NCBI GenBank assembly: GCA_964373695.1 | Contig: CAYJVT010000001.1 | Coordinates: 22,328 to 86,327 of the forward strand | Source: an uncultured archaeon | Lineage (GTDB): Archaea; Aenigmatarchaeota; Aenigmatarchaeia; GW2011-AR5 | Reading direction: 5' to 3' | Length of the DNA stretch: 64,000 nt | Shown: in pieces, positions 10,312-48,442 of the stretch | Layout of the letters: each line of letters opens with the position of its first letter | How positions within the stretch are numbered: the first letter of the stretch is position 1 | The notes under the pieces: model-generated | The model's database searches: none | Seen by the model: only the letters and a program-made list of their open reading frames with translations | Told to the model about the DNA's origin: nothing | Made by a program: the position numbers and the translations under genes

Positions 10312-10314
10312 CAC

Positions 10315-11402: not shown

Positions 11403-11411
11403 GGTGTTGAG

Positions 11412-16220: not shown

Positions 16221-16280
16221 TGGTGATATTTCAATAAGACCCTTTTAAAAGTGAAATTATCTTTAGATTTTTGTTCTAAG

Positions 16281-22340: not shown

Positions 22341-23804
22341 ATGTCGGAAATTCTTCTCATCCAGCCAAATATAGGCATACACGATTTCCTAGCCACCAGA
22401 TTCCCCGACCCTCTGCTCGCAATAGCCTCGGTGCCGCATATGAGGGGTTACAAGGTCAAGATACTTGACCAGAGGATAGAAAAAAACTTCAAGCATCTTC
22501 TGGAGCAGGAAATCGGAAAAAAGCCGCTGTGCATCGCCCTGCCTGTTATGACTGGCGGCCAGATACTCCGCGCCCTTGAGATATCGAAATTCATCAGAAG
22601 CATCGACAAAGACATAAAAATAGTCTGGGGCGGGCCGCATCCGACATTATTCCCTGTCCAGGTCTTGGAAAATGAAAATGTGGACATAATCGTGTCGGGC
22701 GAGGGCGAAATAACGTTTTTCGAGCTTGTCGAGGCTCTTTCAAAAGGCGCTCCTCTTTCAGGCATAAAAGGGATATCGTATAAGGAGGACAGCAGCATAA
22801 AAACGAATCCGGAAAGGGAGCTTATCAAAAATCTTGATGAGCTGCCGCCTATTCCATACGACCTGATAGACGCAAGCAAATATAATCCGACATACATATC
22901 AGGAAGGAAAGCCTTCACGCTCCTGACATCGAGGGGATGTCCATATCGATGCACGTTCTGCTTCGCTACTGCATACTACAACTTCACATGGCGCGGCTAT
23001 TCCGTGGACAGGACGATGGAAATGATACATGAAGCTGTCAACAAATTCGGCGCGCAGACAATACTGTTCCAGGAAGACAACTTCGCGACCAGCATACCGA
23101 GATGCAACGAGATATTTGACAGGATTATAGCGGACGGCCTCGACATTACGTTCAGCCTGGTGGGTATACGCGCCACCGATGTCGCAAGGATGGACCTGGA
23201 CAAGATGTACAAGGCCGGGTGCAGGAACTGCGACATGGGCGTCGAATCAGGGGACCCTGAAGTGATGAAAACCATGATAAAGGCCCTGACGCCGGAACTC
23301 GTCCTGGACGTGAACAGGAAGATAAGGGATTACGGCATAAAGGTGAAATATTCCTTCATAGCCGGCCTCCCGATGGAGAAGGACCCGAAGATATCGATAA
23401 ACTTCGCATTCAAGCTCATAAAGGAGAACAAGAACGCGTATACGCCGTTCTTCCCCTACACGCCTTTTCCGGGCACTGAAATGTACCATGCCGCGATAGA
23501 AAAAGGCTTTGTGCCGCCAACAACGCTCGAAGGCTGGGGCAATTTTGACCTGGAGCACTGGAGGGACCACTATCCCAGCTGGTACACAGAAGAGGAGAAG
23601 CGATGGATAGAGGGCATAGAAAGGATGTCGGTCCTAGGGAACCGCAACTCGAAATACAAGATATCAAACAAGACTTTCAGGTTTTTCTTCGACCTGTACC
23701 ACCCGATTGCCAAGTTCAGGTTCATGAGGAACTACTACGGGATGCCGCTTGACATAAAGATGCAGAACAAGGTCATGAATATGGTAGTCAAGACGCTTGA
23801 TTAA
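22341..23804 (+). CDS. B12-binding domain radical SAM enzyme (class B rSAM, probable C-methyltransferase or related)
   Basis: 487 aa with an N-terminal cobalamin-binding Rossmann domain and a radical SAM motif SRGCPYRCTFC (CxxxCxxC), then ...GVESGDPEV.... Confidence 0.85.
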   Translation: MSEILLIQPNIGIHDFLATRFPDPLLAIASVPHMRGYKVKILDQRIEKNFKHLLEQEIGKKPLCIALPVMTGGQILRALEISKFIRSIDKDIKIVWGGPHPTLFPVQVLENENVDIIVSGEGEITFFELVEALSKGAPLSGIKGISYKEDSSIKTNPERELIKNLDELPPIPYDLIDASKYNPTYISGRKAFTLLTSRGCPYRCTFCFATAYYNFTWRGYSVDRTMEMIHEAVNKFGAQTILFQEDNFATSIPRCNEIFDRIIADGLDITFSLVGIRATDVARMDLDKMYKAGCRNCDMGVESGDPEVMKTMIKALTPELVLDVNRKIRDYGIKVKYSFIAGLPMEKDPKISINFAFKLIKENKNAYTPFFPYTPFPGTEMYHAAIEKGFVPPTTLEGWGNFDLEHWRDHYPSWYTEEEKRWIEGIERMSVLGNRNSKYKISNKTFRFFFDLYHPIAKFRFMRNYYGMPLDIKMQNKVMNMVVKTLD

Positions 23805-25636
23805 TCAATAACAACGAGCTGCTCGTTCACGGATTTTTTTGTCTCTTCAAGATTCGGATAAAGGCTGAACGCCTCGAACTTGTCTCTCCAGTATTCCGAC
23901 TCGCTTAGATATTTCTCTACAAGCCGTATTCTTTCAGCCGCCCCGCCGACGTTGCCGGAATTAAACTCGCATGCGGCAAGCGTCATGTTTGCAAGCGCGT
24001 GGCCTGAAGTGACCACATCGCATATGTATCTCATCTGCCTGACGATCTTAGACAGCCTATCACGATCTTTTATGTTCATGACCCTCTCGTAATTTATTTT
24101 ATAATTCATGTAGAACCATATATCCATCAGCTGCTCCGAAGTCGGCTCCGCATCCAGGTTGCCGCTTTCGAATGGGTTGGCGAATTTTTTCACTTCCTTT
24201 TTGTGCTCGACGGTGTTCTGCTTCCCGTGGGGGCCTATCATGAACCGCGTTTCATTCGTCTGGAGCTTGTCCTCTATCAGGCCCTCTTTCACCATCGCCT
24301 TGTATATCGGGGTAGAGGGCAGAGGCTGCAGTATGTTCAGTGCATACCAGTCCAAGTCCAGCTCAAGTGCAAGGTTCATGGTATCGAGCATCATTCTCAG
24401 CGTTTCATGGGGAAAGCCCAGCATGAGGAAGCCGCGGGAGAATATCTTGGGATATTTCCTTAGAAGGGCCGCCGCATTCCTGAAATTGTCCACTGTCCCG
24501 GGCTTTTTTATGTCCAGAAGTATTTTCGGGTTTCCGGATTCGATGCCGAAGAAAAGCCCTATGCATCCCGATTCGGCCGTAGCCTCTATTATAGCAGGCT
24601 TGCACGCAGCAGCTATGACGCCGTTGGAGGCGTCCCATGTTATGCCGAGGTTGCGCCTTTTTATCTCCTGGAAAAGCTCTATTGTCCTCTTCTCGTTGAA
24701 GAAAAGGTCGTCGTCAAGCCACATTATATGCTTCACGCCGTATTTCCTGGCAAGGAGTTCTATCTCGTCCGCAACGCTTTCAATGCTTCTCTGCCTGACA
24801 CCCATGCCATTGAAGCTGCGGACGCTGCAGAACGTGCACATCGCCCGGCATCCCTTGTTGGAAAGCACGGTCGCGACCCTGGTTCCTGGCTCAAGCAGCG
24901 CAGTGAAGGAGCCGATGGTGCCCACGGAAGAATAATTCGATATATCGACAAGATCGTACGCCGGTATCCTGTTCAAATCATCCGTCTCCGGTGCCTTCCT
25001 TTCCTCCAGCGAATAATATTTGCCGCCTGCAATCACTGACACCTGATAAATCTCATCCCCATGACCGTTCGCGGCCTCAAGAAGCTTCTGGAAAGCCACC
25101 TCGCTCTCGTAGGAGCATGCTATGAGCCTTTCGTAGTCTATTGAGCGCAGAACCCTTTCTGTGTCGTTAGACACGTGAACGCCTCCGACAATTATCGGCA
25201 GTTCCTTTCCGGCGACCTCGCTGCATACTCGCACAAAGCTGTCGTGCGTCATCGTGAACATGCATGTTATGCCGACCGCGTCAGGCCTGAATTCGTCAAT
25301 CTTTCTGGCCAGAAGGCCTTTCCATTCGGCATCGTAATCCATCTTGCCCCCTGATTCCACGGCCCTCTTTATCACATGATAATTTAGGTCGACAATCTCG
25401 GGCTCGTGGCCATTCTCTCGCAAAACGTCGGCGAGAAGCAGCGGGCCATAAGGCGGATATGTATAACACCTTTTCTGCAATGCGGCCTCAAAGTTGAATT
25501 CCTCTGATGCGATGTCCGGCGGGTTGACGAGAAGCACCTTCCTAGCTTTTTTTCCGCCGAATATCTCGCGTATTCTCGCCAATATTGCCGCCTTCGCCTC
25601 CTGTCCCGGCTCGTGCTCTTTCAGAAGCTGCTCCAT
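23801..25636 (-). CDS. B12-binding domain radical SAM enzyme
   Basis: 611 aa with ...LLVNPPD... B12-like N-domain, NKGCRAMCTFC (CxxxCxxC) and ...FGIESGNPKIL.... Its stop codon overlaps the convergent rSAM gene's stop within the palindrome GATTAATC. Confidence 0.85.
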   Translation of the reverse strand: MEQLLKEHEPGQEAKAAILARIREIFGGKKARKVLLVNPPDIASEEFNFEAALQKRCYTYPPYGPLLLADVLRENGHEPEIVDLNYHVIKRAVESGGKMDYDAEWKGLLARKIDEFRPDAVGITCMFTMTHDSFVRVCSEVAGKELPIIVGGVHVSNDTERVLRSIDYERLIACSYESEVAFQKLLEAANGHGDEIYQVSVIAGGKYYSLEERKAPETDDLNRIPAYDLVDISNYSSVGTIGSFTALLEPGTRVATVLSNKGCRAMCTFCSVRSFNGMGVRQRSIESVADEIELLARKYGVKHIMWLDDDLFFNEKRTIELFQEIKRRNLGITWDASNGVIAAACKPAIIEATAESGCIGLFFGIESGNPKILLDIKKPGTVDNFRNAAALLRKYPKIFSRGFLMLGFPHETLRMMLDTMNLALELDLDWYALNILQPLPSTPIYKAMVKEGLIEDKLQTNETRFMIGPHGKQNTVEHKKEVKKFANPFESGNLDAEPTSEQLMDIWFYMNYKINYERVMNIKDRDRLSKIVRQMRYICDVVTSGHALANMTLAACEFNSGNVGGAAERIRLVEKYLSESEYWRDKFEAFSLYPNLEETKKSVNEQLVVID

Positions 25637-26213: not shown

Positions 26214-27149
26214 ATGCAAGCTGCAAGGATGGAAGACTATCTGTCTTCTTTGGGATTCAGAGACCTGACAATATATTTGGGCACTGCTGTCAGTATCGGA
26301 AGCCAATCGCTTTTGGACGCGAATAGGCATCTTTTTTCAGAGGATTTTGAAATGAAACCTGACGGTTCGATGGTTGGCGTTCTTGACAAAACAAGCGATG
26401 TGGCCATTGCAGCATATCTTAATTCTACTCCTGCAACTGAAGCCTGCAGATTCAGGTCAGAGGAAGGGATGGAATTCAGGCAGCCGTCTGAATATGAATA
26501 TGGGGCAATAATAGACCCTTTGGACGGAAGCATAAATCCACGAATAGGCGGGACAAACTTGCACTACATCGGAGTGGGCGGGGCTATTCACCAAAAGCCC
26601 GATGATGAACAGGTTGCTGCGGCAGCCTGTCTGCCTTTTGATGACGATGCCTTGTACGTGACGGAATGGGGAAAAGGAGTCTATAGAGTAACAAATACTG
26701 ATGGAGATTTTCAGTCAAGAAAATTGACGGTACCTGAGAAGCCTGCCCAGACAAATACTTTTATACAGTCAGGATGGCGGACTCCTTACACAAGAAAGGC
26801 GGAGGAAGCGCTTCACAGAAGCGGATTTTACGAGGAACTTGACTTCAACGCAGGCGACACGGTGACTGCCGGTATCTTCCAGACAATTTCCGGTATAAGG
26901 GATTACAGACAGGTCGTGATTAATATCGCGGCTACGCATCAGGCGGATTTTTGCTATCTGTTCCTTAAGGAAACAGGTATGAATCCCATAGCAAACGACG
27001 GCAGACCGATACATTCACAGGCATGCGCTATGCTTTCCGTATCGCCATCATACAGCAAAGATGCAAGTAGGCTTAAAGGAAAATTTGTCGAAGCTTTGCA
27101 TGATTACAGCGGCCATAACAACACCGGCATGCAGCGCGTCTGCGACTAA
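26214..27149 (+). CDS. Inositol-monophosphatase family phosphatase (IMPase/FBPase/CysQ-like)
   Basis: ...AIIDPLDGSINP... metal-binding motif with an upstream Glu and C-terminal Asp motifs. The start is uncertain (26214 or an internal Met at 26352). Confidence 0.65.
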   Translation: MQAARMEDYLSSLGFRDLTIYLGTAVSIGSQSLLDANRHLFSEDFEMKPDGSMVGVLDKTSDVAIAAYLNSTPATEACRFRSEEGMEFRQPSEYEYGAIIDPLDGSINPRIGGTNLHYIGVGGAIHQKPDDEQVAAAACLPFDDDALYVTEWGKGVYRVTNTDGDFQSRKLTVPEKPAQTNTFIQSGWRTPYTRKAEEALHRSGFYEELDFNAGDTVTAGIFQTISGIRDYRQVVINIAATHQADFCYLFLKETGMNPIANDGRPIHSQACAMLSVSPSYSKDASRLKGKFVEALHDYSGHNNTGMQRVCD

Positions 27150-27179: not shown

Positions 27180-27824
27180 ATGCCAGGTCTCATAATACAG
27201 CACCGCGTCAACAATATAGGCGCGCTCCGCAAGATACAACCAAAATACGGCGTGGAGATAGACATCCGTCACGACAACAGGACAGGCAGCCTGTATCTGA
27301 ACCATGACCCGGGAGAGGGCGACGACTTCTTTGAATATTTGGATGTTTTCGCGGAGCAGGGCAACCGCTTCGCTATATTCAACCCGAAAGAAATCGGCAT
27401 TGAGCAGCGAATAATAGAAGCTGCCAAGGAACGCGGCATTGAGGACTACTTCCTTCTCGACCTTGAATTCCCTTTCATATATCGTGCCGCTCAAGGCGGC
27501 GTGCCAAACATCGGCAAACGCATCGCCATCCGCTATTCAGAGGCCGAGCCTTTGGAGCAGGCAATGCTGCTCAAAGGCAGGTTTGACTGGGTATTCGTCG
27601 ACGTCAACACTCGCCTGCCGCTCGACAAAAAAATATGCAATATGCTTGATGAAGCAGGCTTCAGGACCTGCATCGTATGCCCGTCGCGCTGGAAGCGTCC
27701 TGATGACATACCAAAGTTCATAGAGCAGATGAAGAAAGAAGGCATAAAGATAGACGCTGTCATGACCAAGGACCCGTATGCAGAACAGTGGGAGAACAGC
27801 GGCGTTGTGAGGCCGTTCAAATGA
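27180..27824 (+). CDS. Glycerophosphodiester phosphodiesterase-like (GDPD/PI-PLC-X TIM barrel), short form
   Basis: MPGLIIQHRVNN...GVEIDIRHDNRTGSLYLNHD... follows the GDPD pattern HR...E-I-D-I...DG..V..HD. The C-terminus reads ...GIKIDAVMTKDP. Confidence 0.5.
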   Translation: MPGLIIQHRVNNIGALRKIQPKYGVEIDIRHDNRTGSLYLNHDPGEGDDFFEYLDVFAEQGNRFAIFNPKEIGIEQRIIEAAKERGIEDYFLLDLEFPFIYRAAQGGVPNIGKRIAIRYSEAEPLEQAMLLKGRFDWVFVDVNTRLPLDKKICNMLDEAGFRTCIVCPSRWKRPDDIPKFIEQMKKEGIKIDAVMTKDPYAEQWENSGVVRPFK

Positions 27825-28648
27825 CAAACCTCGTCCCGATGGCAGGGCTCGGGAAGCGCTTCTCTGACGAAGGCTACAGCTTGCCGAAGCCGCTGATACC
27901 AGTGTCAGGCAGGCCGATGATAGTGCAGGCAATAAGGAGCATGCCTTCTGACAAGGATTGGGTTTTCGTGTGCAGGAAGGAGCACATAGAAAAATATCAT
28001 GTTGACAAAATCCTCATGAAGGAAGCGCCTTCCTGTAAAATCATTGCCGTTGACAAAACGACAGAAGGACAGGCATCCACATGCCTCCTCGCAAAGGGCT
28101 TCATAGACATGGAAAAGCCGCTTTTCATAGGCGCGTGCGACAACGGCATGGTATTCGACAGGGAGAAATGGAAAAAGCTTACTTCTGACAAGAGTATAGA
28201 CGCAATAATTCTGACATTCACGAGGCAGCCCAACATGACAAGAAATCCCAAGGCGTGGGGCTGGGTTGTTAATGACAATGGCGTTGTGCGGGATATATCT
28301 GTAAAAGTGCCTGTGAGCGACGACCCTTTCAACGACCACGCCGTCGTGGGCTCGTTCTGGTTCCGCACCGGCCAGGTATTCGTTGACGCGGCGGAGCAGA
28401 TGATAGCCTCCAACAAGCGCACGAACAACGAGTTCTATGTCGATTCTGTGCCCATGGAAATCATCGCGAACGGCGGCAAGGTCATGATATTCGACCTGAA
28501 GCAGTACATAGGATGGGGAACCCCCATAGACCTCCGCGAGTACGAGCATTGGGAATCTGCCATATTGAAGGGCGCCTCAGAGCAAGACAGGAAATCCGAT
28601 TTTTACGGCTTCTGGAAGGATTATTTCACGAAAAACATGATAAGATGA
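27821..28648 (+). CDS. Sugar/polyol-phosphate nucleotidyltransferase, WGTP-motif family (paralog 1 of 4 domains)
   Basis: MTNLVPMAGLGKRFSDEGYSLPKPLIPVSGRPMI... with a C-terminal ...YIGWGTPIDLREYEHW. The ATGA overlap with the upstream gene supports the start at 27821. Confidence 0.75.
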   Translation: MTNLVPMAGLGKRFSDEGYSLPKPLIPVSGRPMIVQAIRSMPSDKDWVFVCRKEHIEKYHVDKILMKEAPSCKIIAVDKTTEGQASTCLLAKGFIDMEKPLFIGACDNGMVFDREKWKKLTSDKSIDAIILTFTRQPNMTRNPKAWGWVVNDNGVVRDISVKVPVSDDPFNDHAVVGSFWFRTGQVFVDAAEQMIASNKRTNNEFYVDSVPMEIIANGGKVMIFDLKQYIGWGTPIDLREYEHWESAILKGASEQDRKSDFYGFWKDYFTKNMIR

Positions 28649-28691: not shown

Positions 28692-31172
28692 ATGGGGCTC
28701 GTGGAAAGGCTTGAAGCGGGCGACAGGATAGGAAGCCAGTTTTCAAGGTTCGTCGTCATAGGCGGCATAAGCACGCTGATAAACTACGCCGTTTTCCTCG
28801 TCCTGTATGCCATGCTTTCCGTAAACTACCTTGTCGCGTCAGCCGCCGGCTACGTGGTCGGCGCCGTCTTTGGATATTACTTCAACGCCCGCCTGACCTT
28901 CAGGAGCAGGCCCGGCCTCAGCGTGATGCCCTATTTTGCCGTATACCTGTTCTCGCTGGTGGCGGGTCTTGGGGTGCTGAGGTTCTTCTCTGTGTCGGCC
29001 GGCATAGAGCCGCTGTTTTCAAACGTGATTTCAATAGCGTTCACGGCGGCGGCCAACTTCCTGGGGTGCAGGTATCTGGTTTTCGGCGGCCTGAAAATAC
29101 CTTCGGTATTCAAAAGTAAGGCATTCCTGTCTGTGCTTGCCTTAAAGATAATTTTCGCCTTTCTTTTAGCCTCGGACTTCATGACGCAGCTCTTCATACC
29201 GTTTGTGCAATATTTCGTCGGGAACCCGCTTTCAAATCCCTACCAGCATTTCATCGACATAGGCAACGTGAAGGCGTTCCCGTACCCCCCATTCATGCTC
29301 CTGGTAGTCTCCGTCCCGTACATGCTGTTTGGCGTCTTCAGCGGGCCGTTTTTTGAGCTTTTCGCGATGCGTATACCGCTTCTGGCGGCCGACATAGCGA
29401 TATTCTACGTTCTGTACAGGATTCTGGACGGGAAGAAGGTGATGCTCCTCTACTGGGCGTCCCCTGTGGTGTTCTACATAACGTATATCCACGGCCAGCT
29501 CGACATAATACCCGTGGCGCTCCTGTTCCTGTCAGCCTATTTCCTCAAAGGCCGTCAGTACGTGAAATCCGCGGCCCTCCTGGGCGCCGGCATCGCGGCG
29601 AAGTCGTTTGTCTTCGTGGCGCTTCCTCTTTACCTCGCTTACCTGATAAAGAAAAAAATCCGCTGGATAGGGACGGCTGCATTTTTCGCCATTTCCCTGG
29701 GGATGTATGCCGCCTTCCTCGTGCCCTTTGTCTTCAGCGAAGGCTTCGTCCGCATGGTATTCGGCGCCGAGGAGCAGTTCAGGCTGTTCAATCTTTCGGT
29801 GGATTTAACCCTTGGCCTGGTCTATTACATAGTTCCTGCAGCCTATGCATACATACTTTTCAAGGCATTCTCCTTCAAGAGGATGACGAGTGACATGCTG
29901 TTCGTCCTTCTGGGCATGACCCTTACATTTCTTGTCACGTTCATACATCCTGAGCGCGGCTGGTATATGTGGGCTATCCCGTTCGTAATCTATTTTCTGG
30001 TGAAGGAGAGGATAAGCGTATGGATTTACTCGGCTTTCAATGCCGCGTACCTCCTTTACTTCCTTTTCGTTCCGGACTCGGACGTGTTCCGCGTATTCCA
30101 GGTGGTGTGGCCATCTATATCATCACTGATGACGCCGTACTACATGCTGGTTTCCGCAGGAATCCCATCGGACATACTGGTCAACGTCCTGTTCACCGCC
30201 ATGACGTCGGCGCTGCTTTACCTTACGTACATAATCTACAGGAGGGGCGTCAGAAGCGGTCTGCTGTTCCAGGAGAAGAACGGAATACCGATAATAGGGA
30301 TAGGAGGCGACTCAGGCTCCGGCAAGACCACCCTTGCGAAGACTCTTTCGGAACTGTTTGGCAGGGAGCGCGTGACGACTGTATACGGGGATGACATACA
30401 CAGATGGGAGAGAAAAGACAGTAACTGGGAAAAGTATACGCATCTCAACCCTGCCGGAAACAGAATTTACCTGAATTACAGGCAGATAAGGAAGCTGAAG
30501 GGCGGCGCCACGATAAGCAGGCCGCATTACGACCACGGCACCGGGAAATTCACTTCCCCGTCCAGTATAAAGCCGAGAGACATAATAATCTCCGAAGGCC
30601 TCCATACGTTTTTCATCAGCGAATCCAATAGCATCTACGAAATAAAGGCTTTCCTTGACCCCGATCCATCATTAAGAGTTCTGTGGAAGCTCAGGCGTGA
30701 TATGAAGCTCAGGGGATACTCAAAGAAGGAGGTAATGAAGAAACTTGGGCAAAGAAGGCGCGACTCAGACAGGTTCATCGCGCCGCAGAAGATGTATGCC
30801 GACATGGTGATTTCTTACATGCCTGAAGGGAAGGTGAGCTTTTCCGACATTGAAAATGACGTTCCTGTAAGGCTGCAGATCGACGTGAAGAACGACATAC
30901 CGCTCGAAGGTTTTCTGGAGGCTGCGTCCGGAATAAAATCTCTCGGCATAGAGATGGAATACCATGACCACAGATTCCAGCGCATGGTGTTCAGGGGCGG
31001 CGCTTCGGTGGAAGATATTGGAAATCTGCTGAACTCCCTTGACATAGATTACGAAACGTACGAAATAGACAGGAACGGAATCAGGGGCGGGTTCGACGGC
31101 ATTTTACAGGTTATTTTCCTTTATTGCCTCAACGAAAGGCTCAAGGTGCTGGGTGGTGGCGGCGATGAATGA
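28692..31172 (+). CDS. Three-domain fusion: GtrA-like module + GT-C-like polytopic membrane domain + phosphoribulokinase/uridine-kinase-family P-loop kinase
   Basis: aa 1-125 FSRFVVIGGISTLINYAVFLVLY...FLGCRYLVFG (GtrA); aa ~130-520 carry >10 hydrophobic helices; aa ~525-826 carry GIPIIGIGGDSGSGKTTLAKTL (Walker A) and ISEGLHTFF...FLDPDPSLRVLWKLRRDMKLRGYSKKEVMKKLGQRRRDSDRFIAPQKMYADMVI (PRK signature region). Confidence 0.8.
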   Translation: MGLVERLEAGDRIGSQFSRFVVIGGISTLINYAVFLVLYAMLSVNYLVASAAGYVVGAVFGYYFNARLTFRSRPGLSVMPYFAVYLFSLVAGLGVLRFFSVSAGIEPLFSNVISIAFTAAANFLGCRYLVFGGLKIPSVFKSKAFLSVLALKIIFAFLLASDFMTQLFIPFVQYFVGNPLSNPYQHFIDIGNVKAFPYPPFMLLVVSVPYMLFGVFSGPFFELFAMRIPLLAADIAIFYVLYRILDGKKVMLLYWASPVVFYITYIHGQLDIIPVALLFLSAYFLKGRQYVKSAALLGAGIAAKSFVFVALPLYLAYLIKKKIRWIGTAAFFAISLGMYAAFLVPFVFSEGFVRMVFGAEEQFRLFNLSVDLTLGLVYYIVPAAYAYILFKAFSFKRMTSDMLFVLLGMTLTFLVTFIHPERGWYMWAIPFVIYFLVKERISVWIYSAFNAAYLLYFLFVPDSDVFRVFQVVWPSISSLMTPYYMLVSAGIPSDILVNVLFTAMTSALLYLTYIIYRRGVRSGLLFQEKNGIPIIGIGGDSGSGKTTLAKTLSELFGRERVTTVYGDDIHRWERKDSNWEKYTHLNPAGNRIYLNYRQIRKLKGGATISRPHYDHGTGKFTSPSSIKPRDIIISEGLHTFFISESNSIYEIKAFLDPDPSLRVLWKLRRDMKLRGYSKKEVMKKLGQRRRDSDRFIAPQKMYADMVISYMPEGKVSFSDIENDVPVRLQIDVKNDIPLEGFLEAASGIKSLGIEMEYHDHRFQRMVFRGGASVEDIGNLLNSLDIDYETYEIDRNGIRGGFDGILQVIFLYCLNERLKVLGGGGDE

Positions 31173-32097
31173 ACTTGAATGGCTCGTAAAGACCTCAGGG
31201 AATATCGGAAGCGACCCAAGGCTTGTCCAGGGCACCGGGGGCAACCTGTCAGTGAAGCTCGGCGGAAAGATGATGATAAAATCCTCCGGGGTCAGAATGG
31301 ATGCTGTCAGTAACGGCAGCGGATGGAGCGTCGTCGACCACGGGAAGATAGCCGGCATATATTCAAGAAGATTAACAGAGGAAGACGCCGGGAGGGTTTT
31401 GGAAGAAGCCATTATCGAAGGCTCAAAGCCCTCGATAGAGACGGGGTTTCACTCGTTTCTTGAAAAATACGTCATTCACGTCCACCCTGTCCATCTTAAT
31501 GTCATTCTGTGCTGTGAAAAAAGCGCTGAAATTATGTCCGAAATTTTCTCGCCGGACGAATTCACCTGGGTTCCTTATACCAAGGTAGGCCACAGACTGG
31601 CAGCAGAGATAAAAGACCGCGGCCATGACAGAGGGATTATATTCCTGGAAAATCACGGTGTGATAATATCATCAGACAGCCCCAAGGACTGCACAGAAAT
31701 TCTTTCGTCTGTCGAGGAGCGTGTAAGAAAATACCTAGAGTCAAAAATCCGGCCGTTCGAGCCGTTTTCATATACGATACCAAGGGAAGCGGAAGGCTGC
31801 TATGTCAGCACTTCCGAAGCGGTTCTGCGCGGCAGGTCGGGAATTTTCTCCGGCTTTCTTTTCCCTGACGCCGTCGTCTTCTCCTTGCCGGAAAAGATAA
31901 AAGCTGACGCCAAGGGCGTAACGTATTTAATGGATTATGCGAATGCTGTAAACGTTGATGGCGTGCTGGCGGCTCATGCATACATAAAGGAAAATGCCGC
32001 AAAGCTCGGCATGCTGAAATACCTCACGGAAATGGAAATCAGCGACATAATAGGCATGGAATCTGAAAAATACAGGAGAAAGATGGTTGGATTATGA
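31165..32097 (+). CDS. Class II aldolase/adducin-family protein (FucA/AraD/MtnB-like aldolase, epimerase or dehydratase)
   Basis: ...GNIGSDPRLVQGTGGNLSVKLGG... matches the class II aldolase N-terminal motif, with metal-ligand His residues (HSFLEKYVIHVHPVH). ATG at 31165 overlaps the upstream stop (ATGA). Confidence 0.7.
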   Translation: MNELEWLVKTSGNIGSDPRLVQGTGGNLSVKLGGKMMIKSSGVRMDAVSNGSGWSVVDHGKIAGIYSRRLTEEDAGRVLEEAIIEGSKPSIETGFHSFLEKYVIHVHPVHLNVILCCEKSAEIMSEIFSPDEFTWVPYTKVGHRLAAEIKDRGHDRGIIFLENHGVIISSDSPKDCTEILSSVEERVRKYLESKIRPFEPFSYTIPREAEGCYVSTSEAVLRGRSGIFSGFLFPDAVVFSLPEKIKADAKGVTYLMDYANAVNVDGVLAAHAYIKENAAKLGMLKYLTEMEISDIIGMESEKYRRKMVGL

Positions 32098-32963
32098 AAG
32101 TGATAATACCGGCGGCCGGGATTGGCCAGAGATTTCTGGATGCCGGATATAAAAAACCGAAGCCGCTGATACTCGCCGACGGCATCCCGTTTGCCAGGCA
32201 TGTGGCAAATATGTTTTCCCCTAGCGATGAGTTTGTTTTCGTGTGCAATGAAGAGCACCTGAAAACGACGGAGATGCGCAGCGTCGTCGAAAGCGTCGGC
32301 CGCATAGTTTCCATAAAGCCCCACTCCCTCGGCCCTGTGCACAGCGTTCTTGCCGCCTCTGACCTCATAGAGGAAGATGAGCCTGTGATGGTCTGCTACT
32401 GCGATTTCTACGAATGGTGGGATTATCAGCATTTCAAAGATACAGTGAAAGAAAGCGGATGCGACGCGGCCGTCACCGCGTACACCGGATTCCACCCCCA
32501 CCTTCTGGGCACCGGCCTATACGCCTCGATGAAAGTGGAAAACGGCTGGATGCTGGAATGCAGGGAGAAGCACAGCTTTACGGAGGACAAGATGGACAGC
32601 TTCCACCAGACTGGAAAGTTTTACTTCTCCACCGGAAGCATTTTGAAAAGGTTCTTCAGTGATATAAAGGAAAGGAACCTCGTAGTGAACGGTGAATTCT
32701 ACATCAGCGTCGTGACGCAGGCGATGGTGGAGGCGGGCCTGAAGGTGATGGTATATCCGGTGGAGCATTTCCTCCAGTGGGGCACGCCGCAGGAGCTGGA
32801 GGAATACACGCAGTGGTCAGGGTACTTCTCGGGCAAGAACGGGTTGCCGGAGGCTTTCGACGAAAGGAGCTTAGGATACTGGGAATCGTTCTTCAGGAAA
32901 TGCCCGTGGCATCCGTACGGAAAAGGTGGGGCTCATGATAAAGGGGATTATGCTAGACCTTGA
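32094..32963 (+). CDS. Sugar/polyol-phosphate nucleotidyltransferase, WGTP-motif family (paralog 2)
   Basis: MKVIIPAAGIGQRFLDAGYKKPKPLILADGIPF... with a C-terminal ...FLQWGTPQELEEYTQW. ATGA overlap with the aldolase gene. Confidence 0.75.
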   Translation: MKVIIPAAGIGQRFLDAGYKKPKPLILADGIPFARHVANMFSPSDEFVFVCNEEHLKTTEMRSVVESVGRIVSIKPHSLGPVHSVLAASDLIEEDEPVMVCYCDFYEWWDYQHFKDTVKESGCDAAVTAYTGFHPHLLGTGLYASMKVENGWMLECREKHSFTEDKMDSFHQTGKFYFSTGSILKRFFSDIKERNLVVNGEFYISVVTQAMVEAGLKVMVYPVEHFLQWGTPQELEEYTQWSGYFSGKNGLPEAFDERSLGYWESFFRKCPWHPYGKGGAHDKGDYARP

Positions 32964-33594
32964 CAACACCCTCTATGACTATGAAACCTGCAATGAATAC
33001 GCAAAATACGAGCTTTTCCGCAAAATCGAGGGCGATATGGGCGTTGCCGGCGCCGAAAAGGCGTTCGACGAAGCAAGAAAATCCGTGAAGAAGTCTCTTG
33101 AGAAGACGGCGGCCGGCCATTCGCGCCTTCTTTACATAGGGAAGGCGCTAGAGGCCCTTGGCATAAGCGCACTCCATTCGGTGCGCTATCATGATTTTTT
33201 CTGGGAAAAATATTTCGAGAAAATGGAGCTTTTCGAGAGCGTCGCGGATTTTCTCGAGCATGCAAAAAATTCCGGGATGAAAATCTGCATAGTCACGGAC
33301 CTCACCGCCGAAATCCAGATGAAGAAAATAATCCACCTCGGGATAGAAGGCTATGTAGATTTTATCGTGTCGTCTGAGGAGGTGGGTGAAGATAAGCCGT
33401 CATCGAAGGTGTTCTGCATGGCCCTAGAGAAGATGGGTATGAAAAAGGAGGATGTTGTTATGGTGGGGGACGACGAGGAAAAGGACATAAAAGGCGCGGA
33501 AAATGCAGGCATCCGTGCGGTGAAGGCGGACCCTTCCATCTTTGCATCCGGGAGGCTCGTGGAAATCCTGCAGGCGGCGGATAGGTTTAAGTAA
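32935..33594 (+). CDS. HAD-superfamily hydrolase (subfamily IA-like phosphatase)
   Basis: MIKGIMLDLDNTLYDYE... (motif I DxDxT), ...CIVTD... (motif II), ...KP... and ...VVMVGDDEEKDIKGAENAG... (motifs III/IV). Confidence 0.8.
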   Translation: MIKGIMLDLDNTLYDYETCNEYAKYELFRKIEGDMGVAGAEKAFDEARKSVKKSLEKTAAGHSRLLYIGKALEALGISALHSVRYHDFFWEKYFEKMELFESVADFLEHAKNSGMKICIVTDLTAEIQMKKIIHLGIEGYVDFIVSSEEVGEDKPSSKVFCMALEKMGMKKEDVVMVGDDEEKDIKGAENAGIRAVKADPSIFASGRLVEILQAADRFK

Positions 33595-33616
33595 ATTTTT
33601 TGCGTATCTTTGGAAT

Positions 33617-34246
33617 ATGATACTGCTCCCGAAGCTCAGGCTCGGCGTAACCGCATTTTCGGGCCCAGAATCCGTGGAAGCGATAAGTAAAATGGGGGTC
33701 AGGCATGTGAACATCCCTTCATCTCTCCTGAATGCTGACAACGCCGGTGCCTACATGGAGAACGCCAAAAAATTCAATATCACAATCGAGGCCGTGTGCA
33801 CCGGCGGCTCGGATAATTTCGCGGAGCTGGCGGCAGCCGTGGGAGCGAAGGCACTGTGCATAGCCTTGGATGACATAAGCCTTATCGGAGCCGTTTCGGA
33901 CAGCGCCAAGAGCACAGGACTTAATTATCTGATATGGGAACCTGCAGGCATCGGTATGGAAGACTGTAAAAGGACTCTGACAGACATCAGCAAGACGTCT
34001 GCCATTCCTGTGAAGCTCGCACTCTCTCTCGAGTCGGATAACATCTACGAGATGTCGAGAATTATAGGAAAGGACGCCATGATAATCATAAGGAGGAAGG
34101 AAGACATTGCAATACTCGGGAAGGTTATCGACAGCCTGAGAACGGGTGGCTCTAGGGAAAACATGATAATGCTGGATATGCCTTCGGCAGCCATTGACAG
34201 CCTCGAGACCTCGGTGGACTACTGTAGGAGTTTCGTCAGAGAGTGA
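33617..34246 (+). CDS. Hypothetical protein, possibly TIM-barrel-like
   Basis: ~210 aa from MILLPKLRLGVTAFSG.... No confident family. Its position in the operon supports a real gene. Confidence 0.35.
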   Translation: MILLPKLRLGVTAFSGPESVEAISKMGVRHVNIPSSLLNADNAGAYMENAKKFNITIEAVCTGGSDNFAELAAAVGAKALCIALDDISLIGAVSDSAKSTGLNYLIWEPAGIGMEDCKRTLTDISKTSAIPVKLALSLESDNIYEMSRIIGKDAMIIIRRKEDIAILGKVIDSLRTGGSRENMIMLDMPSAAIDSLETSVDYCRSFVRE

Positions 34247-34251
34247 AATTA

Positions 34252-35151
34252 ATGACAAAAATCAAATTCGGCACTGACCTTGACTTTGCGGTTAACAGGT
34301 ATCCGGAGCCTGAGGAATGGGCACGCGTCCTGTCGGAAGAGCTTGGCGTCAGGCATGCCCAGTTCCGCTCCGACCTCATCCAGCCGCATTTTTCCGATGA
34401 AATAATAAATGAGCAGGCTGAAAGGGTAAGAGCCGCATGCAAGGAATACGGAATCAGGCTGGAGCATGCGTTCACCAGCCAGAGATGGGCCTACTGCGGC
34501 CATCCTGACGCAAAAATAAGGGAATACTGGCACTGGTGGCTGAAGCGCTATTCTGATATTGCTGCAAAAGTCGGTGCGCGGAGCGCAGGAAGCCGCCTCG
34601 GCATATACAGCATGAAAGACCTTTCAACAAGGAAGGAGTTCATTCTAAAGGAGATAATGAGTTTCTGGAAGAAATGGGCATCTTATTCGAAGAAGGCCGG
34701 CCTTGACTGCCTGACATTCGAGCATCTCTCAATCCCGAGGGAGCTTGCCGACACGATAGAAGGCGCAAGACAGGTGCTTGACATGGCAAAGGGCTCCGAA
34801 ATTCCAATCCTGTTGTGCCTTGACACCGACCAAGGAAATGTGATGTCCGGAAACCCGAAGGATGGCGACCCGTACGAATGGCTCAGGGAATTCGGCAAAG
34901 ACGCGCCTATCCTGCACCTCAAACAGAGAATAAGAGGCAACGCCTCGTCTGGCAAGCCGTTCACGCCCGAAAACAACAAGGAAGGAATGATAATACCGGA
35001 GAAAGTCGTGGAAGCACTTGAAGAAAGCGGAGCGAAGGAAGTCAACCTTTACCTTGAGCCTTCATTCCGCGAACGCCTGCCGCAGGACAACAACGTAATC
35101 AGTGACCTCAGGCAGTCGGTCAACTTCTGGAAGCCTTACGCCGACGAATAG
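34252..35151 (+). CDS. Xylose-isomerase-like TIM-barrel protein (sugar-phosphate isomerase/epimerase family)
   Basis: 300 aa. MTKIKFGTDLDFAV... and the spacing of conserved E/H/D residues (...TFEHLS..., ...LCLDTDQGN..., ...LHLKQ...) are typical of the AP-endonuclease-2/xylose-isomerase-like fold. Confidence 0.6.
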   Translation: MTKIKFGTDLDFAVNRYPEPEEWARVLSEELGVRHAQFRSDLIQPHFSDEIINEQAERVRAACKEYGIRLEHAFTSQRWAYCGHPDAKIREYWHWWLKRYSDIAAKVGARSAGSRLGIYSMKDLSTRKEFILKEIMSFWKKWASYSKKAGLDCLTFEHLSIPRELADTIEGARQVLDMAKGSEIPILLCLDTDQGNVMSGNPKDGDPYEWLREFGKDAPILHLKQRIRGNASSGKPFTPENNKEGMIIPEKVVEALEESGAKEVNLYLEPSFRERLPQDNNVISDLRQSVNFWKPYADE

Positions 35152-35179
35152 CTCAAAGCCTATGAAACGTCTGTCATGC

Positions 35180-35752
35180 TCACTCCAGATTCGCGTGGTA
35201 TTTCCACAGCTCTTCGCCGGGAATGCTTTTCCTGCCTTGTATCATCAAAGATACTATGTCCCCGAATACGTGGAGTGACTGGTCAAAGAGCGTGCTCATG
35301 GGCTGTATAGACTTCACGCCTTCCTGCATATTGGTCTTCGTCGGGCATTTCAGGTGGACGCACATGTCTGCAAGAGATTTTATTGTGGATTGCTCCGAAG
35401 ATGTAATGAGAGCCAGCTTGGCGTTGTGCTTCTTCGCTATCTGCGATATTGTGACAGGAACCTTGCTCTCGCCTGAGCCGCTGGCGACTATGAGGAGATC
35501 GCGCGGCGTTATGGCCTTTTCTGCGACGGAGCCGACGACGTGGCAGTCTATGCCCAAATGGCTTAAGCGCTTTGCCATGCACTGCAAGGAAAGGAATACG
35601 CGGCCGACTGCTATGAAGAATACTTTCTCGGCTCTCAGTATTTCTTCCACTAGCGCATCCACTTCGTTTGTATCGACCATTTTCGTTACGCTGTATATCT
35701 CGTCCAGGACAGACACTGTGAACTTGCTGTATTCGTGCTCCATAAACATCAC
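35180..35752 (-). CDS. SIS-domain sugar isomerase, 6-phospho-3-hexuloisomerase (PHI)-like
   Basis: 190 aa with ...KVFFIAVGRVFLSLQCMAKRLSHLG... and ...LLIVASGSGES..., an SIS pattern with PHI-like length. Confidence 0.65.
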   Translation of the reverse strand: MMFMEHEYSKFTVSVLDEIYSVTKMVDTNEVDALVEEILRAEKVFFIAVGRVFLSLQCMAKRLSHLGIDCHVVGSVAEKAITPRDLLIVASGSGESKVPVTISQIAKKHNAKLALITSSEQSTIKSLADMCVHLKCPTKTNMQEGVKSIQPMSTLFDQSLHVFGDIVSLMIQGRKSIPGEELWKYHANLE

Positions 35753-36789
35753 GGTTCCACGACGACCTTCAGGCCGTCACGGTTTTTTACTGTTTCAAAC
35801 GCCTTTAAAATATCGTCAAGTGGGAATTTGTGAGTTATGATATTTTTCGTCTTTATGTCTCCGTTTGCAAGCAGCTCCAGGGCCTTCCTGTGGTGATCTT
35901 TTGTGGAGGAAAATGAGCCGCCGACGGCGAACTGCCTGTAATGCATGTAGTTGTTCTGGAATGTCACGGTGTCGTCGGTGCCTTTCGGCACGCCGCCAAA
36001 AAGGTTCACGAAACCGCCCTTTGCCACAGCCTGGATGCAGGCGCGATGCGCATTTATGTCACTGCACGCCGAAACAACGATATCATATCCCCTTCCGCCT
36101 GTCAGCTCTATGGACTCCTCAAGGAAGTCGTTGTTCTCCGAATGGATATAATGGTCGGCGCCTGTAGGCCTTGACATCTCAAGCCTTTTCTCATTCCTGT
36201 CAACAAGAACAGCCATCGAGGCGCCCATTATCTGTGCCGTATTTATCATGAGATTTCCTATCGGCCCAGCCCCTATCACGAGCACACTTTTCCCTTCTTT
36301 CATGCCGGCGAATTCCAGCCCGTTGTATACGCATGCGAGCGGCTCTGCAAAGGACGCCTCGACAAAGTCGAGGTTCTTCGGCATGAAATTAATCGGCCCG
36401 CGTTCCGCCGCTTCCTTCGGCAAAAGCAGATATTCAGCGAAGCCTCCCGGGACGGTCGAGCCTATGGAGATAACATTCTGGCAAAGCATGTCCAGGCCCC
36501 TCCGGCATTCCTCACAGTTTCTGCATGATATCTCATTACCCATGGCAAGCCTGTCTCCAATGCTGAAATTCTCCACGCCTTTTCCAATTTCAGTAACAGT
36601 GCCGGCGATTTCGTGCCCCATTACAAAGGGGAATTTCTTTATCCTGTCGCCGTACTCGTAGAACCTGAGGTCTGAGCCGCAGACGCCGCATGCGCCAACC
36701 TTAAGGAGTATCTCACCTTCTTTCGGGACAGGCGTTTCGACATCCCCGACCCTCATATTTTTGGGGCTTTCAAGAAGGGCGGCTTTCAT
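35749..36789 (-). CDS. Zinc-dependent alcohol/polyol(-phosphate) dehydrogenase (MDR family)
   Basis: 346 aa with ...GACGVCGSDL...GHEIAG... (catalytic Zn), CRNCEECRRG (structural Zn) and GAGPIGN (Rossmann). Confidence 0.85.
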   Translation of the reverse strand: MKAALLESPKNMRVGDVETPVPKEGEILLKVGACGVCGSDLRFYEYGDRIKKFPFVMGHEIAGTVTEIGKGVENFSIGDRLAMGNEISCRNCEECRRGLDMLCQNVISIGSTVPGGFAEYLLLPKEAAERGPINFMPKNLDFVEASFAEPLACVYNGLEFAGMKEGKSVLVIGAGPIGNLMINTAQIMGASMAVLVDRNEKRLEMSRPTGADHYIHSENNDFLEESIELTGGRGYDIVVSACSDINAHRACIQAVAKGGFVNLFGGVPKGTDDTVTFQNNYMHYRQFAVGGSFSSTKDHHRKALELLANGDIKTKNIITHKFPLDDILKAFETVKNRDGLKVVVEP

Positions 36790-36910: not shown

Positions 36911-38518
36911 ATGAAGGTTATCATACCGATGGCCGGGAATAACGAGGACTTCCGCCGGGAAGGGATGGATGAAGTAAAGCACATGATGAATATAGACGGC
37001 AAGAGCATGATAGAGCACGTATGCGGCATGTTCCCCCAGAACAGCAGCTTCATATTTCTCTGCAGGAAGGCGCATCTGGATAATTCAGGCCTTATGGAAC
37101 ATCTCCAGAAAATAGTCAAGAATTCCACGATAATAGTAGTTGAAAACGACACGAGAGGGCCGGTGGAAACTGTGTTGCTCGCTGACGGGGCTGTGAGAGA
37201 TGATGAGGAAGTAATAATAGCCCATTCCGACGCCATATCGGACTGGGATTTCAGCGTGTTCCTGAAGAAAATAAAGGACAGAAAAGCCGATGGCGCCCTT
37301 TCAACGTTCATAGGCTTTCATCCGACACACCTCAACGGGGTGCGTTATGCCTCCATATCAACAGACGACAACGACTATGTAGTCAGTATAAAGGAAAAGG
37401 AGCTCATAACAAAGGGCTACATTGAAAACTACACTTCCGCCGGTGTGTATTATTTTTCAAGGTGGGATGTGTTCAAGAAATACGCTGAAAGGATGATAGA
37501 AAACGTCGAACACGAGATGTTTTACATAAGCCTGGTATACAACGAGATGTTGAAAGACGGCCTGAAGGTCGTGCCTTTCGAGGCTGAGGGCCTAATTTAC
37601 TGGGGTGAACCGCAGAATCTGAAGGAGTATGTGTTCTGGTCGGAATATTTTGCGTCCCTGACCAAGCAGGGCAAGGAAAGGGGAATGTACGATATGGTAA
37701 ATCTCATACCTTCCGCAGGCCGCGGAAAGAGATTTGCAGACGCTGGGTACAAGATTCCCAAGCCGTTCATAGATGTTCTTGGCGAGCATATGATAGTGAA
37801 ATGTGCAAAATCGCTTCCAAAAACGGCCAGATACGTCTTCGTCTGCCTAAGGCAGCATGTAGAAAATTTCGGGCTCGACGAAATTCTGAAAAAAAACTTC
37901 CCGGAATGCGATATTGTCATAGTAAATGACTATACAGACGGCATGGCACGCTCGTGTCTCATGGCCAAGCATCTTCTGGACAAGGACAAGCCTGTTTTCG
38001 TCTCGTCATGCGACTACAGCTTCGTCTACAACGACGAAAATCTCAGGAGGCTGATTGAGGACGAGGACCCTGATGCAGTAGTGTGGACATTCAGGGGGTA
38101 TCCGGATGCCAGAATAGCACCAATGGCATACGCCTACATGGTAGTGGAGAACGGCCGTGTCAAAAGAATCTCGGAAAAGGTTCCGATAAGCGACGAGCCG
38201 CACAAGGATCCAATAGTGCAGGGCATTTTCTACTTCAAGACAGCCAAGCTTCTGATAGATTGCATAAACGAGATGATAGAAAAAAACATAACCGTCAACG
38301 GCGAGTTCTACGTCGGAACCGCCATAAACCATCTCATAGAGAAGGGTATGAAAGTCATGCCATTTGAGCTGGATAAATACATATGCTGGGGAACGCCGCA
38401 CGACCTGCTTGTGTTCCAGTTCTGGGAAAACTACTTCATAAATAATCCGAATCACCCATATAAAAGGATTGTACCTAAATCGGAATTAAGCCAACTGAAA
38501 TTGGCTAAGATGTGGTAA
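36911..38518 (+). CDS. Internally duplicated (tandem) WGTP-family nucleotidyltransferase; N-terminal copy has a degenerate G-loop, C-terminal copy canonical
   Basis: Domain 1: MKVIIPMAGNNEDFRREGMDEVKHMMNIDGKSMI...LIYWGEPQNLKEYVFW. Domain 2: LIPSAGRGKRFADAGYKIPKPFIDVLGEHMI...YICWGTPHDLLVFQFW. Confidence 0.75.
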   Translation: MKVIIPMAGNNEDFRREGMDEVKHMMNIDGKSMIEHVCGMFPQNSSFIFLCRKAHLDNSGLMEHLQKIVKNSTIIVVENDTRGPVETVLLADGAVRDDEEVIIAHSDAISDWDFSVFLKKIKDRKADGALSTFIGFHPTHLNGVRYASISTDDNDYVVSIKEKELITKGYIENYTSAGVYYFSRWDVFKKYAERMIENVEHEMFYISLVYNEMLKDGLKVVPFEAEGLIYWGEPQNLKEYVFWSEYFASLTKQGKERGMYDMVNLIPSAGRGKRFADAGYKIPKPFIDVLGEHMIVKCAKSLPKTARYVFVCLRQHVENFGLDEILKKNFPECDIVIVNDYTDGMARSCLMAKHLLDKDKPVFVSSCDYSFVYNDENLRRLIEDEDPDAVVWTFRGYPDARIAPMAYAYMVVENGRVKRISEKVPISDEPHKDPIVQGIFYFKTAKLLIDCINEMIEKNITVNGEFYVGTAINHLIEKGMKVMPFELDKYICWGTPHDLLVFQFWENYFINNPNHPYKRIVPKSELSQLKLAKMW

Positions 38519-38520
38519 AA

Positions 38521-45229: not shown

Positions 45230-45230
45230 A

Positions 45231-47473: not shown

Positions 47474-47549
47474 GACATTATTCGAAACTCCTGTATATAT
47501 TCATAAATTTATTTGGGCATGTTATGTTACCAAAAACTTTGGTGTAAAT

Positions 47550-48437: not shown

Positions 48438-48442
48438 TAAAT

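Follow-up and report, generated by a model that had tools for sequence, protein, structure and literature searches.

The DNA analysed here (the window) is a 64,000-nucleotide stretch from an uncultured archaeon (GenBank assembly GCA_964373695.1, contig CAYJVT010000001.1, positions 22,328 to 86,327 of the forward strand). Its nearest relatives place it in the Aenigmatarchaeota (DPANN) instead of the Thermoplasmata/Euryarchaeota lineage implied in an earlier note, which had been made from the sequence alone. The gene under study has an intact reading frame of 826 amino acids (aa) and combines in one polypeptide a GtrA module, a GT-C fold with 12 transmembrane (TM) helices and a full-length phosphoribulokinase (PRK) fold (Table 1). 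Pfam assigned aa 19-131 to the GtrA/DPMS transmembrane module (E 1.7e-18) and aa 534-715 to the PRK/uridine-kinase family (PF00485; E 2.2e-38), and the GtrA part both scored above the gathering score of the PF04138 hidden Markov model (HMM) and contained four TM helices. When the middle segment (aa 129-523) was scanned alone, GT87 (formerly DUF2029) reached 26.0 bits against a gathering score of 25; this family was not reported in the full-length scan at E<=0.01, and the corresponding parts of the homologs matched GT87, MptA_B or Alg6_Alg8 weakly. An AlphaFold2 model built on 31 homologs (pLDDT 89.6, pTM 0.84) was compared with known structures, and a polytopic GT-C fold was present. The separate HMM scans and the model thus bore out the three segments, and the motifs quoted for them, that had been read in the earlier note.

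The membrane face on which the kinase sits had been left to topology prediction and an AlphaFold model. From the helices of the model we derived a 4+12 TM topology, with 24 Lys/Arg among 101 inside-loop residues and 6 among 178 outside-loop residues. Given this charge distribution, the N-terminus and the kinase are predicted to lie in the cytoplasm, and the polar motifs conserved in the GT-C domain to lie outside. Another 12-TM variant (residues 200-212 as a TM helix, 290-320 merged) also kept the kinase inside but put the Lys/Arg-rich loops 243-248 and 286-289 outside, while a 13-TM topology was rejected because the kinase would end up outside the cell.

For the kinase domain, the top NCBIfam model was phosphoribulokinase (NF005655, 205.4 bits), with uridine kinase at 88 bits. 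Sequence searches against solved structures retrieved cyanobacterial PRKs (~1e-40), the Methanospirillum PRK (4e-37) and uridine kinases (~1e-15), and identity to PRKs over the kinase core was 38 to 39%. In Foldseek comparisons, the C-terminal 300 aa superposed whole on full-length PRKs (TM-scores 0.76 to 0.78), a match that takes in the PRK-specific C-terminal sheet besides the P-loop core. By sequence and fold the domain belongs with the PRKs and not with the uridine kinases, as had been proposed. Its P-loop (G536-K545, with the Walker A motif GGDSGSGKT at 537-545) was invariant in an alignment of 31 family sequences, and E635, within EGLH, is the Walker B acidic residue. In the Chlamydomonas enzyme (CrPRK), Asp57 and His105 form the catalytic dyad, Arg64, Tyr103 and His105 bind the phosphate of ribulose-5-phosphate (Ru5P), and Arg159, Asp160 and Arg164 belong to the lid (bioRxiv 10.1101/422709, PMC9978339). 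An ungapped alignment to PRK 6KEV equated D567, H570, R574, Y613 and H615 with CrPRK D57, H60, R64, Y103 and H105, and K666, R669, D670 and R674 with K156, R159, D160 and R164; all of these residues were invariant in the family alignment. The regulatory redox Cys pair of plant-type PRK was missing, with S541 and Y565 at the aligned positions. Judged by its sequence, the kinase domain is a catalytically complete enzyme of the PRK type, with a sugar-phosphate site that appears to be built as for Ru5P.

Conserved motifs of the GT-C domain were FPY (196-198), D234, HGQLD (267-271), K304, E361/Q362 and GW (423-424), and HGQLD, E361/Q362 and G423/W424 faced outward in the predicted topology. Two acidic residues were invariant, D234 in a TM helix and D271 in a predicted outer loop. 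In a homolog encoded on an E. coli plasmid (7864..9846 of locus L096, see below), the otherwise invariant YIHGQLD (aa 265-271 of the window protein) reads YGLGLND. Only the Asp is kept there, so D271 is to be preferred to H267 or Q269 as a catalytic candidate.

A word-indexed protein search with the fusion returned 37 homologs, some with all three domains (825 to 843 aa) and many composed of GT-C and PRK (~700 aa), as in Eudoraea adriatica WP_019670906.1, annotated as a 'glycosyltransferase 87 family protein'. With nothing but the kinase domain as query, an exhaustive HMMER scan gave 683 cluster representatives at E<1e-30. Among the best 150 of these, 119 were at least 600 aa long with the kinase at the C-terminus; the shorter kinase representatives mostly started inside the last TM helix and therefore look like truncated gene calls. 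When one genome per species was scanned, 460 genomes encoded relatives of the fusion, so that the rarity implied in the earlier note did not hold. The nearest relative (92% identity) came from a metagenome-assembled genome of a groundwater Candidatus Aenigmatarchaeota. Other DPANN hosts were Micrarchaeia, Woesearchaeota and Nanoarchaeota, and the bacterial hosts, in which the three-domain, GtrA-bearing form was found too, included the candidate phyla radiation (CPR/Patescibacteria), Bacteroidota, Rickettsiales, other Proteobacteria, Melainabacteria, Omnitrophota, Rokubacteria and a spirochete symbiont. Cultured Bacteroidota with relatives include Eudoraea adriatica, Zeaxanthinibacter enoshimensis and Geojedonia litorea, Flavobacteriaceae being among the cultured hosts. 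RefSeq and JGI name the family piecemeal ('GtrA family protein', 'glycosyltransferase 87 family protein', 'uridine kinase', 'phosphoribulokinase'); the fusion is real and widespread, with no function known to annotation. Our literature search likewise found no paper on a PRK fused to GtrA or GT-C, or on PRK in glycan synthesis, in line with the earlier note, and such a fusion is not mentioned in a survey of archaeal fusions (PMC11237513). One 16-kb contig classed as viral (IMG/VR 3300015262_000245, locus L088) encodes a GT-C-PRK fusion at 30% identity, and seven further viral contigs carry kinase-only PRK homologs. Viral contigs had been considered as a clue, chloroviruses having xylulofuranose; with a single match of the fusion type they were set aside as uninformative.

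The fusion gene marks a conserved module, whose partners co-occur tightly and are variably fused, and which sits among clusters of glycan genes. Partners were counted by tblastn in 50 loci, taken from species-representative genomes and complete over 6-kb flanks (Table 1), and the orthology of neighbours to window genes was set by blastp. At least five of the six partners, namely nucleotidyltransferase (NTase) A, NTase B, protein X, a class II aldolase-like enzyme, a GT2 glycosyltransferase and a phosphatase of the haloacid dehalogenase (HAD) superfamily, were present in 39 of these loci, and the companions were alike in all eight neighbourhoods inspected by hand. The two NTases are paralogous, and separate A and B regions were seen in 66 of 75 loci. 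The aldolase-like gene shared the strand of the fusion in 62 of 63 loci, and in the window its first 20 nt are also the last 20 nt of the fusion gene. For NTase A the listed start is a GTG (27788); an in-frame ATG at 27821 would give a 4-nt overlap with the stop of X. Elsewhere the partners are joined in other ways: GT-C, PRK and Aldolase_II in one chain of 1058 aa (P0107), Aldolase_II, NTase B and an inositol monophosphatase (IMPase) in 925 aa (locus L005, 12117..14894), and NTase A and GT2 in 504 aa (L005, 7735..9249). An eighth conserved component was sought among additional polytopic 'hypothetical' proteins of 490 to 820 aa, which showed no cross-lineage BLAST similarity.

The window HAD matched NF053830, the model of the haloarchaeal ribulose-1,5-bisphosphate (RuBP) 5-phosphatase, best (182 bits), the next NCBIfam model scoring 124 bits, and NF053830 was also the best match for five of five distant orthologs from archaea, Flavobacteriia and other bacteria (six of six with the window HAD), at 158 to 186 bits and 50 to 70 bits above the next model. 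That phosphatase is strictly RuBP-specific and yields ribulose-1-phosphate (Ru1P), and the Ru1P aldolase, a member of the class II aldolase family, acts on a ketose-1-phosphate (PMC9700705). The aldolase-like enzyme of the module belongs to the class II aldolase superfamily (PF00596, 63.7 bits), with its PSxE, HxH and NHG metal/catalytic motifs intact in seven of seven sequences compared and a conserved, family-specific extra C-terminal domain. Members of the class II aldolase family (FucA, RhaD, AraD, MtnB) have ketose phosphates as substrates, mostly 1-phosphates. Best matches of the module enzyme were rhamnulose-1-P aldolase domains, and it scored 22 bits on the haloarchaeal Ru1P aldolase model NF053831, whose cutoff is 300. 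Sequence searches of solved structures with the aldolase-like enzyme and the NTases returned uncharacterised structural-genomics entries only.

Protein X was modelled as a TIM barrel (AlphaFold2, pLDDT 95), with glycerophosphodiester phosphodiesterases (GDPDs; 3ks5, 7e0v) as the best folds and a phosphatidylinositol-specific phospholipase C (PI-PLC; 5fyr) also matched. H8, R9, E26, D28 and H42 (HR, ExD and H motifs) are invariant among its sequences. Its family comprises 166 homologs, mostly 'hypothetical protein' entries of DPANN and CPR and some with an added PF14251 domain, and has no Pfam or NCBIfam model; plasmid orthologs are named 'PI-PLC/GDPD family protein' by RefSeq. The GT2 showed weak matches to ArnC, to DPMS (dolichol-phosphate mannose synthase) and to the GtrB sll0501. 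The fused B-A NTase of the window is 42% and 32% identical to the single copies and co-linear with double NTases of two other loci (L002, L003), and such a duplicate of the NTase pair is a hint that there are two activated sugars of related kind.

A protein search of plasmids recovered the full module on three finished plasmids (Table 1). The E. coli plasmid protein aligned co-linearly with aa 164-817 of the window protein (29% identity, E 2e-83). This copy is compact, at 9 kb, and the class II aldolase gene is followed by a polytopic hypothetical protein and then IS26. Among 5,426 complete E. coli genomes, two carried the plasmid operon; the module-bearing IncR plasmid came from human-stool and bullfrog isolates with identical sequence. 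On all three plasmids GtrA is a stand-alone gene beside GT2, X and the fusion, which shows the N-terminal GtrA of the window protein to be a genuine part of the module that became fused to the rest. Carriage by plasmids of E. coli, Azospirillum and Hirschia points to horizontal mobility. A link to the xylulose antigens of E. coli O95 and O97 was also considered: a DNA search with a gammaproteobacterial copy as query gave no match in 5,426 E. coli genomes, a negative that, being at the DNA level, is weak evidence. The module occurs in E. coli although this species has no RuBisCO.

Taking these features together, we consider the fusion on balance probably a three-module membrane enzyme of a surface-glycan decoration module with its own RuBP-based sugar supply. 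The cytoplasmic kinase would make RuBP by adding a phosphate to C1 of Ru5P, or of a pentulose-5-phosphate very close to it, and the HAD would strip the 5-phosphate to leave Ru1P, the net result being an ATP-driven shift of phosphate from C5 to C1. The aldolase-like enzyme would then reshape the ketose-1-phosphate, most plausibly by epimerisation, which we favour over cleavage because the ATP would be wasted if dihydroxyacetone phosphate (DHAP) were the product. A nucleotide-activated sugar would come from the NTases, possibly acting with the PLC-like barrel X, and the GT2 would load it on polyprenyl or dolichyl phosphate. GtrA would assist translocation of the lipid-linked sugar, a role not firmly established biochemically even for the GtrA family, and at the outer face the GT-C domain would pass the sugar on to a surface glycan. 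The context of GT2 and GtrA in the module suggests a polyprenyl-phosphate-linked sugar as the GT-C donor. With the first committed enzyme fused to the last, supply and use of the sugar would be co-localised and co-dosed. The system overall is, in our best reading, a GtrA/GtrB/GtrC-type three-component scheme plus an RuBP-based supply branch, and the transferred sugar would most likely be a pentulofuranose or a derivative of one. Pentulofuranoses occur in several bacterial and chloroviral glycans, xylulofuranose in those of E. coli O95 and O97, Yersinia, Campylobacter, Devosia and chloroviruses. Phospho-decoration of the glycan, which had been suggested for the kinase, is not favoured, because the conserved HAD, closest to RuBP 5-phosphatase, suggests that one phosphate is removed again.

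Several points weigh against this proposal. Its substrate and product are read from homology and gene context alone, and the kinase scored below the curated NF005655 cutoff of 236, though NF005655 was the best model by >110 bits. The module HADs fell far below the NF053830 equivalog cutoff of 330 bits, and a HAD was seen within 6 kb in 31 of the 50 loci only. The assignment of the GT2 to the polyprenyl-phosphate class is weak. Many GT-C enzymes have a catalytic Asp or Glu in the first external loop, and no invariant acidic residue was found in that loop here (aa 159-199). Tethering a kinase with a soluble substrate to the membrane has no explanation in this scheme. Finally, the C1 phosphate of a ketose is non-anomeric, so that an extra step to a donor usable by the GT2 is needed, and how Ru1P would become such a donor is unexplained.

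Because two NTases and a PLC-like enzyme are near-universal in the module, and PLC-like enzymes are known to form cyclic phosphates, a speculative route for this step can be drawn. After the PRK had added the C1 phosphate and the HAD removed that at C5, NTase B would turn the 1-phosphate into a nucleoside diphosphate (NDP)-1-pentulose, the PLC/GDPD-like barrel would convert this to a 1,2-cyclic phosphate that is opened to the anomeric pentulose-2-phosphate, and NTase A would make the true glycosyl donor, NDP-pentulofuranose, for GT2, GtrA and GT-C. It is unlikely, in our estimate, that such a 'phosphate walk' makes the module the missing route to pentulofuranose (ribulo- or xylulofuranose) surface residues and a first RuBisCO-independent, anabolic role of PRK and RuBP. 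If it did, many 'PRK' calls in metagenomes of DPANN, CPR, Bacteroidota and Rickettsiales would stand for glycan decoration in place of Calvin-cycle capacity.

The membrane tethering would find a reason if the PRK-like fold served another acceptor, be it xylulose-5-phosphate, a hexulose or heptulose phosphate, or a polyprenyl-phosphate- or NDP-linked pentulose whose phosphate occupies the Ru5P phosphate site; fusion to the GT-C would then reflect a membrane substrate. The kinase is indeed always tethered, straight after a long TM helix, and besides its score below the PRK cutoff, the fused kinases are closer to one another over ~285 aa than to assayed PRKs. PRK 6KEV, moreover, takes glucose-6-phosphate in the sugar site, according to its PDB entry title. 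We nevertheless regard another acceptor as possible but rather improbable, as the residues that contact Ru5P in PRK structures are all invariant, the partners are soluble enzymes, and the characterised enzyme nearest to the HAD is strictly specific for RuBP. The pathway might also keep Ru5P as its substrate and end in cleavage, from Ru5P over RuBP and Ru1P to DHAP and glycolaldehyde, so that the unit activated and transferred would be a C2 or C3 fragment, or something derived from it such as a substituent like glycerol phosphate or one made from glycolaldehyde, and not a pentose. The same three enzyme families act in the same order in haloarchaea (PMC9700705), the aldolase-like enzyme keeps the full Zn/catalytic site and best resembles rhamnulose-1-P aldolase domains, and a GDPD-like X would suit glycerophosphodiester chemistry. 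DHAP is, however, an abundant central metabolite, and ATP spent on making it from Ru5P is hard to rationalise; the match to the Ru1P-aldolase model is faint, the aldolase-like family has its conserved extra C-terminal domain, and the set of GT2, GT-C and GtrA indicates a glycosyl unit, which together make cleavage distinctly unlikely.

Nucleoside salvage at the membrane by a uridine or cytidine kinase, in support of nucleotide-sugar synthesis, would agree with the automated name 'uridine kinase' and with PF00485, which spans both enzyme types. We hold it to be highly improbable in view of the gaps in model score and structure match given above, of the ~300-aa PRK architecture, whose C-terminal sheet is not found in the 200-aa uridine kinases, and of the invariant counterpart of PRK Arg64 in the Ru5P phosphate site. 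The source being a metagenome-assembled genome, an assembly or gene-calling artefact that joined separate genes was also weighed; it deserves hardly any credence, with co-linear homologs in hundreds of independent assemblies and on finished plasmids, conservation unbroken across the domain junctions, and a model that packs the domains confidently.

The window also contains genes that the module elsewhere lacks. Two Zn-dependent alcohol dehydrogenases (Zn-ADHs; 29% identical to each other), an SIS protein, a xylose-isomerase-like barrel, an IMPase-like protein and a 234-aa ORF without a family had orthologs in 0 of 80 related loci and were rejected as module members; Inositol_P proteins of L001 and L005 were unrelated to the window IMPase-like gene. 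These extras are a lineage-specific add-on. Of the operon of pentulose/polyol-phosphate enzymes described in the earlier note, the HAD and aldolase-like genes therefore stood as conserved partners, together with the NTases, X and GT2, while the Zn-ADH, SIS, xylose-isomerase-like and IMPase-like genes fell away. They may lengthen the pathway; the Zn-ADHs, for one, might turn an NDP-pentulose into an NDP-pentitol by reduction, much as CDP-6-fructose is reduced to CDP-6-glucitol (PMC10918830).

Between ~14.7 and 50.3 kb, a surface-glycan island takes up much of the window, with a Wzx-type flippase, a carbamoyltransferase, two B12-radical-SAM enzymes, GT2s, sugar epimerases/dehydratases, an aminotransferase, a thiamine pyrophosphate (TPP) enzyme and a PMT_2-type GT-C. 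The acetolactate-synthase-like TPP enzyme suggests a branched or acylated sugar. An ortholog of a radical SAM enzyme (89% identity) occurred in only 2 of 80 loci. Three large polytopic proteins are possibly glycan polymerases or more GT-C-like enzymes; those of 577 and 610 aa are paralogs (35% identity), and the 562-aa protein resembles two unannotated proteins of L001. A RuBisCO signature was looked for within the window and none was found, as the earlier note had stated.

Table 1. Features of the fusion gene, its module and the surrounding window, and plasmid copies of the module. Coordinates are window positions unless a plasmid is named; counts are loci with orthologs.
Feature	Coordinates	Strand	Remarks
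GtrA/GT-C/PRK fusion gene, 826 aa	28692..31172	+	whole ORF including stop
GtrA-type 4-TM module	28746..29084	+	aa 19-131
12-TM GT-C glycosyltransferase domain	29103..30281	+	aa 138-530
Full-length PRK domain, predicted cytoplasmic	30282..31157	+	aa 531-822
Protein X, GDPD/PI-PLC-like TIM barrel, 214 aa	27180..27824	+	43/50 loci; no Pfam family
NTase type A	27788..28648	+	PF00483; 49/50 loci; fused to GT2 in L005
Class II aldolase-like Zn enzyme	31153..32097	+	PF00596 E 2.6e-17; 42/50 loci
NTase type B	32094..32963	+	PF12804; 49/50 loci
HAD phosphatase, RuBP 5-phosphatase-like	32926..33594	+	NF053830 182 bits; 31/50 loci
Second, fused NTase pair (B-A double domain, 535 aa)	36911..38518	+	two NTP_transferase stretches
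Short soluble GT2, candidate polyprenyl-phosphate sugar synthase (GtrB/DPMS/ArnC-like)	39594..40286	+	PF00535; 38/50 loci
Extra ketose/polyol-type genes	34243..36789, 38512..39555, 26214..27149, 33542..34246		within and beside module
B12-binding radical SAM enzymes, 487 and 611 aa, convergent	22341..23804, 23801..25636	+, -	directly upstream of module
Large polytopic membrane proteins (~8-9 TM)	18131..19819, 20515..22248, 56706..58538	+, -, +	no Pfam match
Rest of glycan island	14721..18038, 43488..50257	-, +	Wzx/MurJ-type flippase, carbamoyltransferase, NTase, NAD-dependent epimerases/dehydratases, DegT-type aminotransferase, GT2, TPP-dependent acetolactate-synthase-like enzyme
E. coli IncR plasmid NZ_CP145712.1, 33 kb (L096)	6022..14984		double NTase, GtrA, GT2, PI-PLC/GDPD, 660-aa 'uridine kinase', HAD, class II aldolase
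Azospirillum brasilense MTCC4039 plasmid p5			same module; adjoins O-antigen-type genes (ABC transporter, gmd, GDP-L-fucose synthase, GT1s)
Hirschia baltica ATCC 49814 plasmid pHbal01			same module parts, scattered over larger cluster

A PRK is commonly read as a sign of carbon metabolism based on RuBisCO, and DPANN archaea are stated to lack it as a rule (Jaffe et al., 10.1101/386292). If our interpretation is correct, a large clade of PRKs fused to membrane domains, which heterotrophs, symbionts and ultra-small cells carry in their glycan clusters, would give RuBP a second, anabolic use, and a PRK hit would have to be taken with caution as evidence of Calvin-cycle capacity. The module is a concrete and testable candidate route to sugars of the xylulofuranose type, and copies in an E. 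coli plasmid, A. brasilense, H. baltica ATCC 49814 and cultured Flavobacteriaceae make it tractable. RuBP has a toxic effect in E. coli cells that express PRK; fusion of the first cytoplasmic to the last extracytoplasmic enzyme may tie RuBP to its consumer.

Compared with plant, cyanobacterial and archaeal PRKs (PDB 9qko, 6kev, 5b3f), the fused kinase is membrane-tethered, is not linked to RuBisCO, lacks the regulatory Cys pair and belongs to glycan clusters of heterotrophs and symbionts. [quoted passage not shown] There, however, RuBP comes from ribose-1,5-bisphosphate isomerase and serves nucleoside catabolism, whereas in the module it would come from PRK, the context is anabolic (NTases, GT2, GT-C), and the HAD and aldolase-like enzymes score below the equivalog cutoffs.

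A parallel in logic is NDP-heptose synthesis, which uses the kinase HldA/HddA, the HAD phosphatase GmhB and the nucleotidyltransferase HldC/HddC. There a sugar omega-phosphate receives a second phosphate at C1, the omega-phosphate is taken off by a HAD and an NTase acts on the remaining sugar-1-phosphate, the same order as is proposed for the module, but the module has another kinase family and another sugar class, and the non-anomeric ketose C1 calls for the extra step. In the CDP-6-D-fructose/CDP-6-D-glucitol pathway of C. jejuni HS:5 (PMC10918830), an NTase acts on a non-anomeric ketose phosphate and reduction follows, which bears on the Zn-ADHs of the window; that pathway has no kinase, phosphatase or GT-C, and its enzyme subfamilies differ. 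From GT-Cs with lipid-phosphate donors (GPI-MT-I, ALG3, ALG6, PimE/GT87), the GT-C of the module, at 11 to 13% identity, differs in being fused to a kinase and in the first external loop, which has no invariant acidic residue.

Close, too, is the scheme of GtrA/GtrB/GtrC in Shigella phages and of GtcA-CsbB-YfhO in Listeria and Bacillus (PMC7389260), in which a small membrane protein of the GtrA family works with a GT2, the source of a polyprenyl-phosphate sugar, and with a GT-C that transfers this sugar at the outer face. These three gene types are also encoded together here, as judged by gene presence and with a weak class assignment of the GT2. In this lineage, unlike in the Gtr systems, GtrA and the GT-C form a single chain, and the GT-C is in every case joined to a cytoplasmic PRK. 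Where the Gtr systems draw on a housekeeping UDP-sugar, the module has its own five-enzyme branch of sugar supply. The Gtr scheme is already known; what would be new here is a PRK/RuBP supply branch for Gtr-type lipid-linked glycosylation, together with the unusual fusion of its first enzyme to its last.

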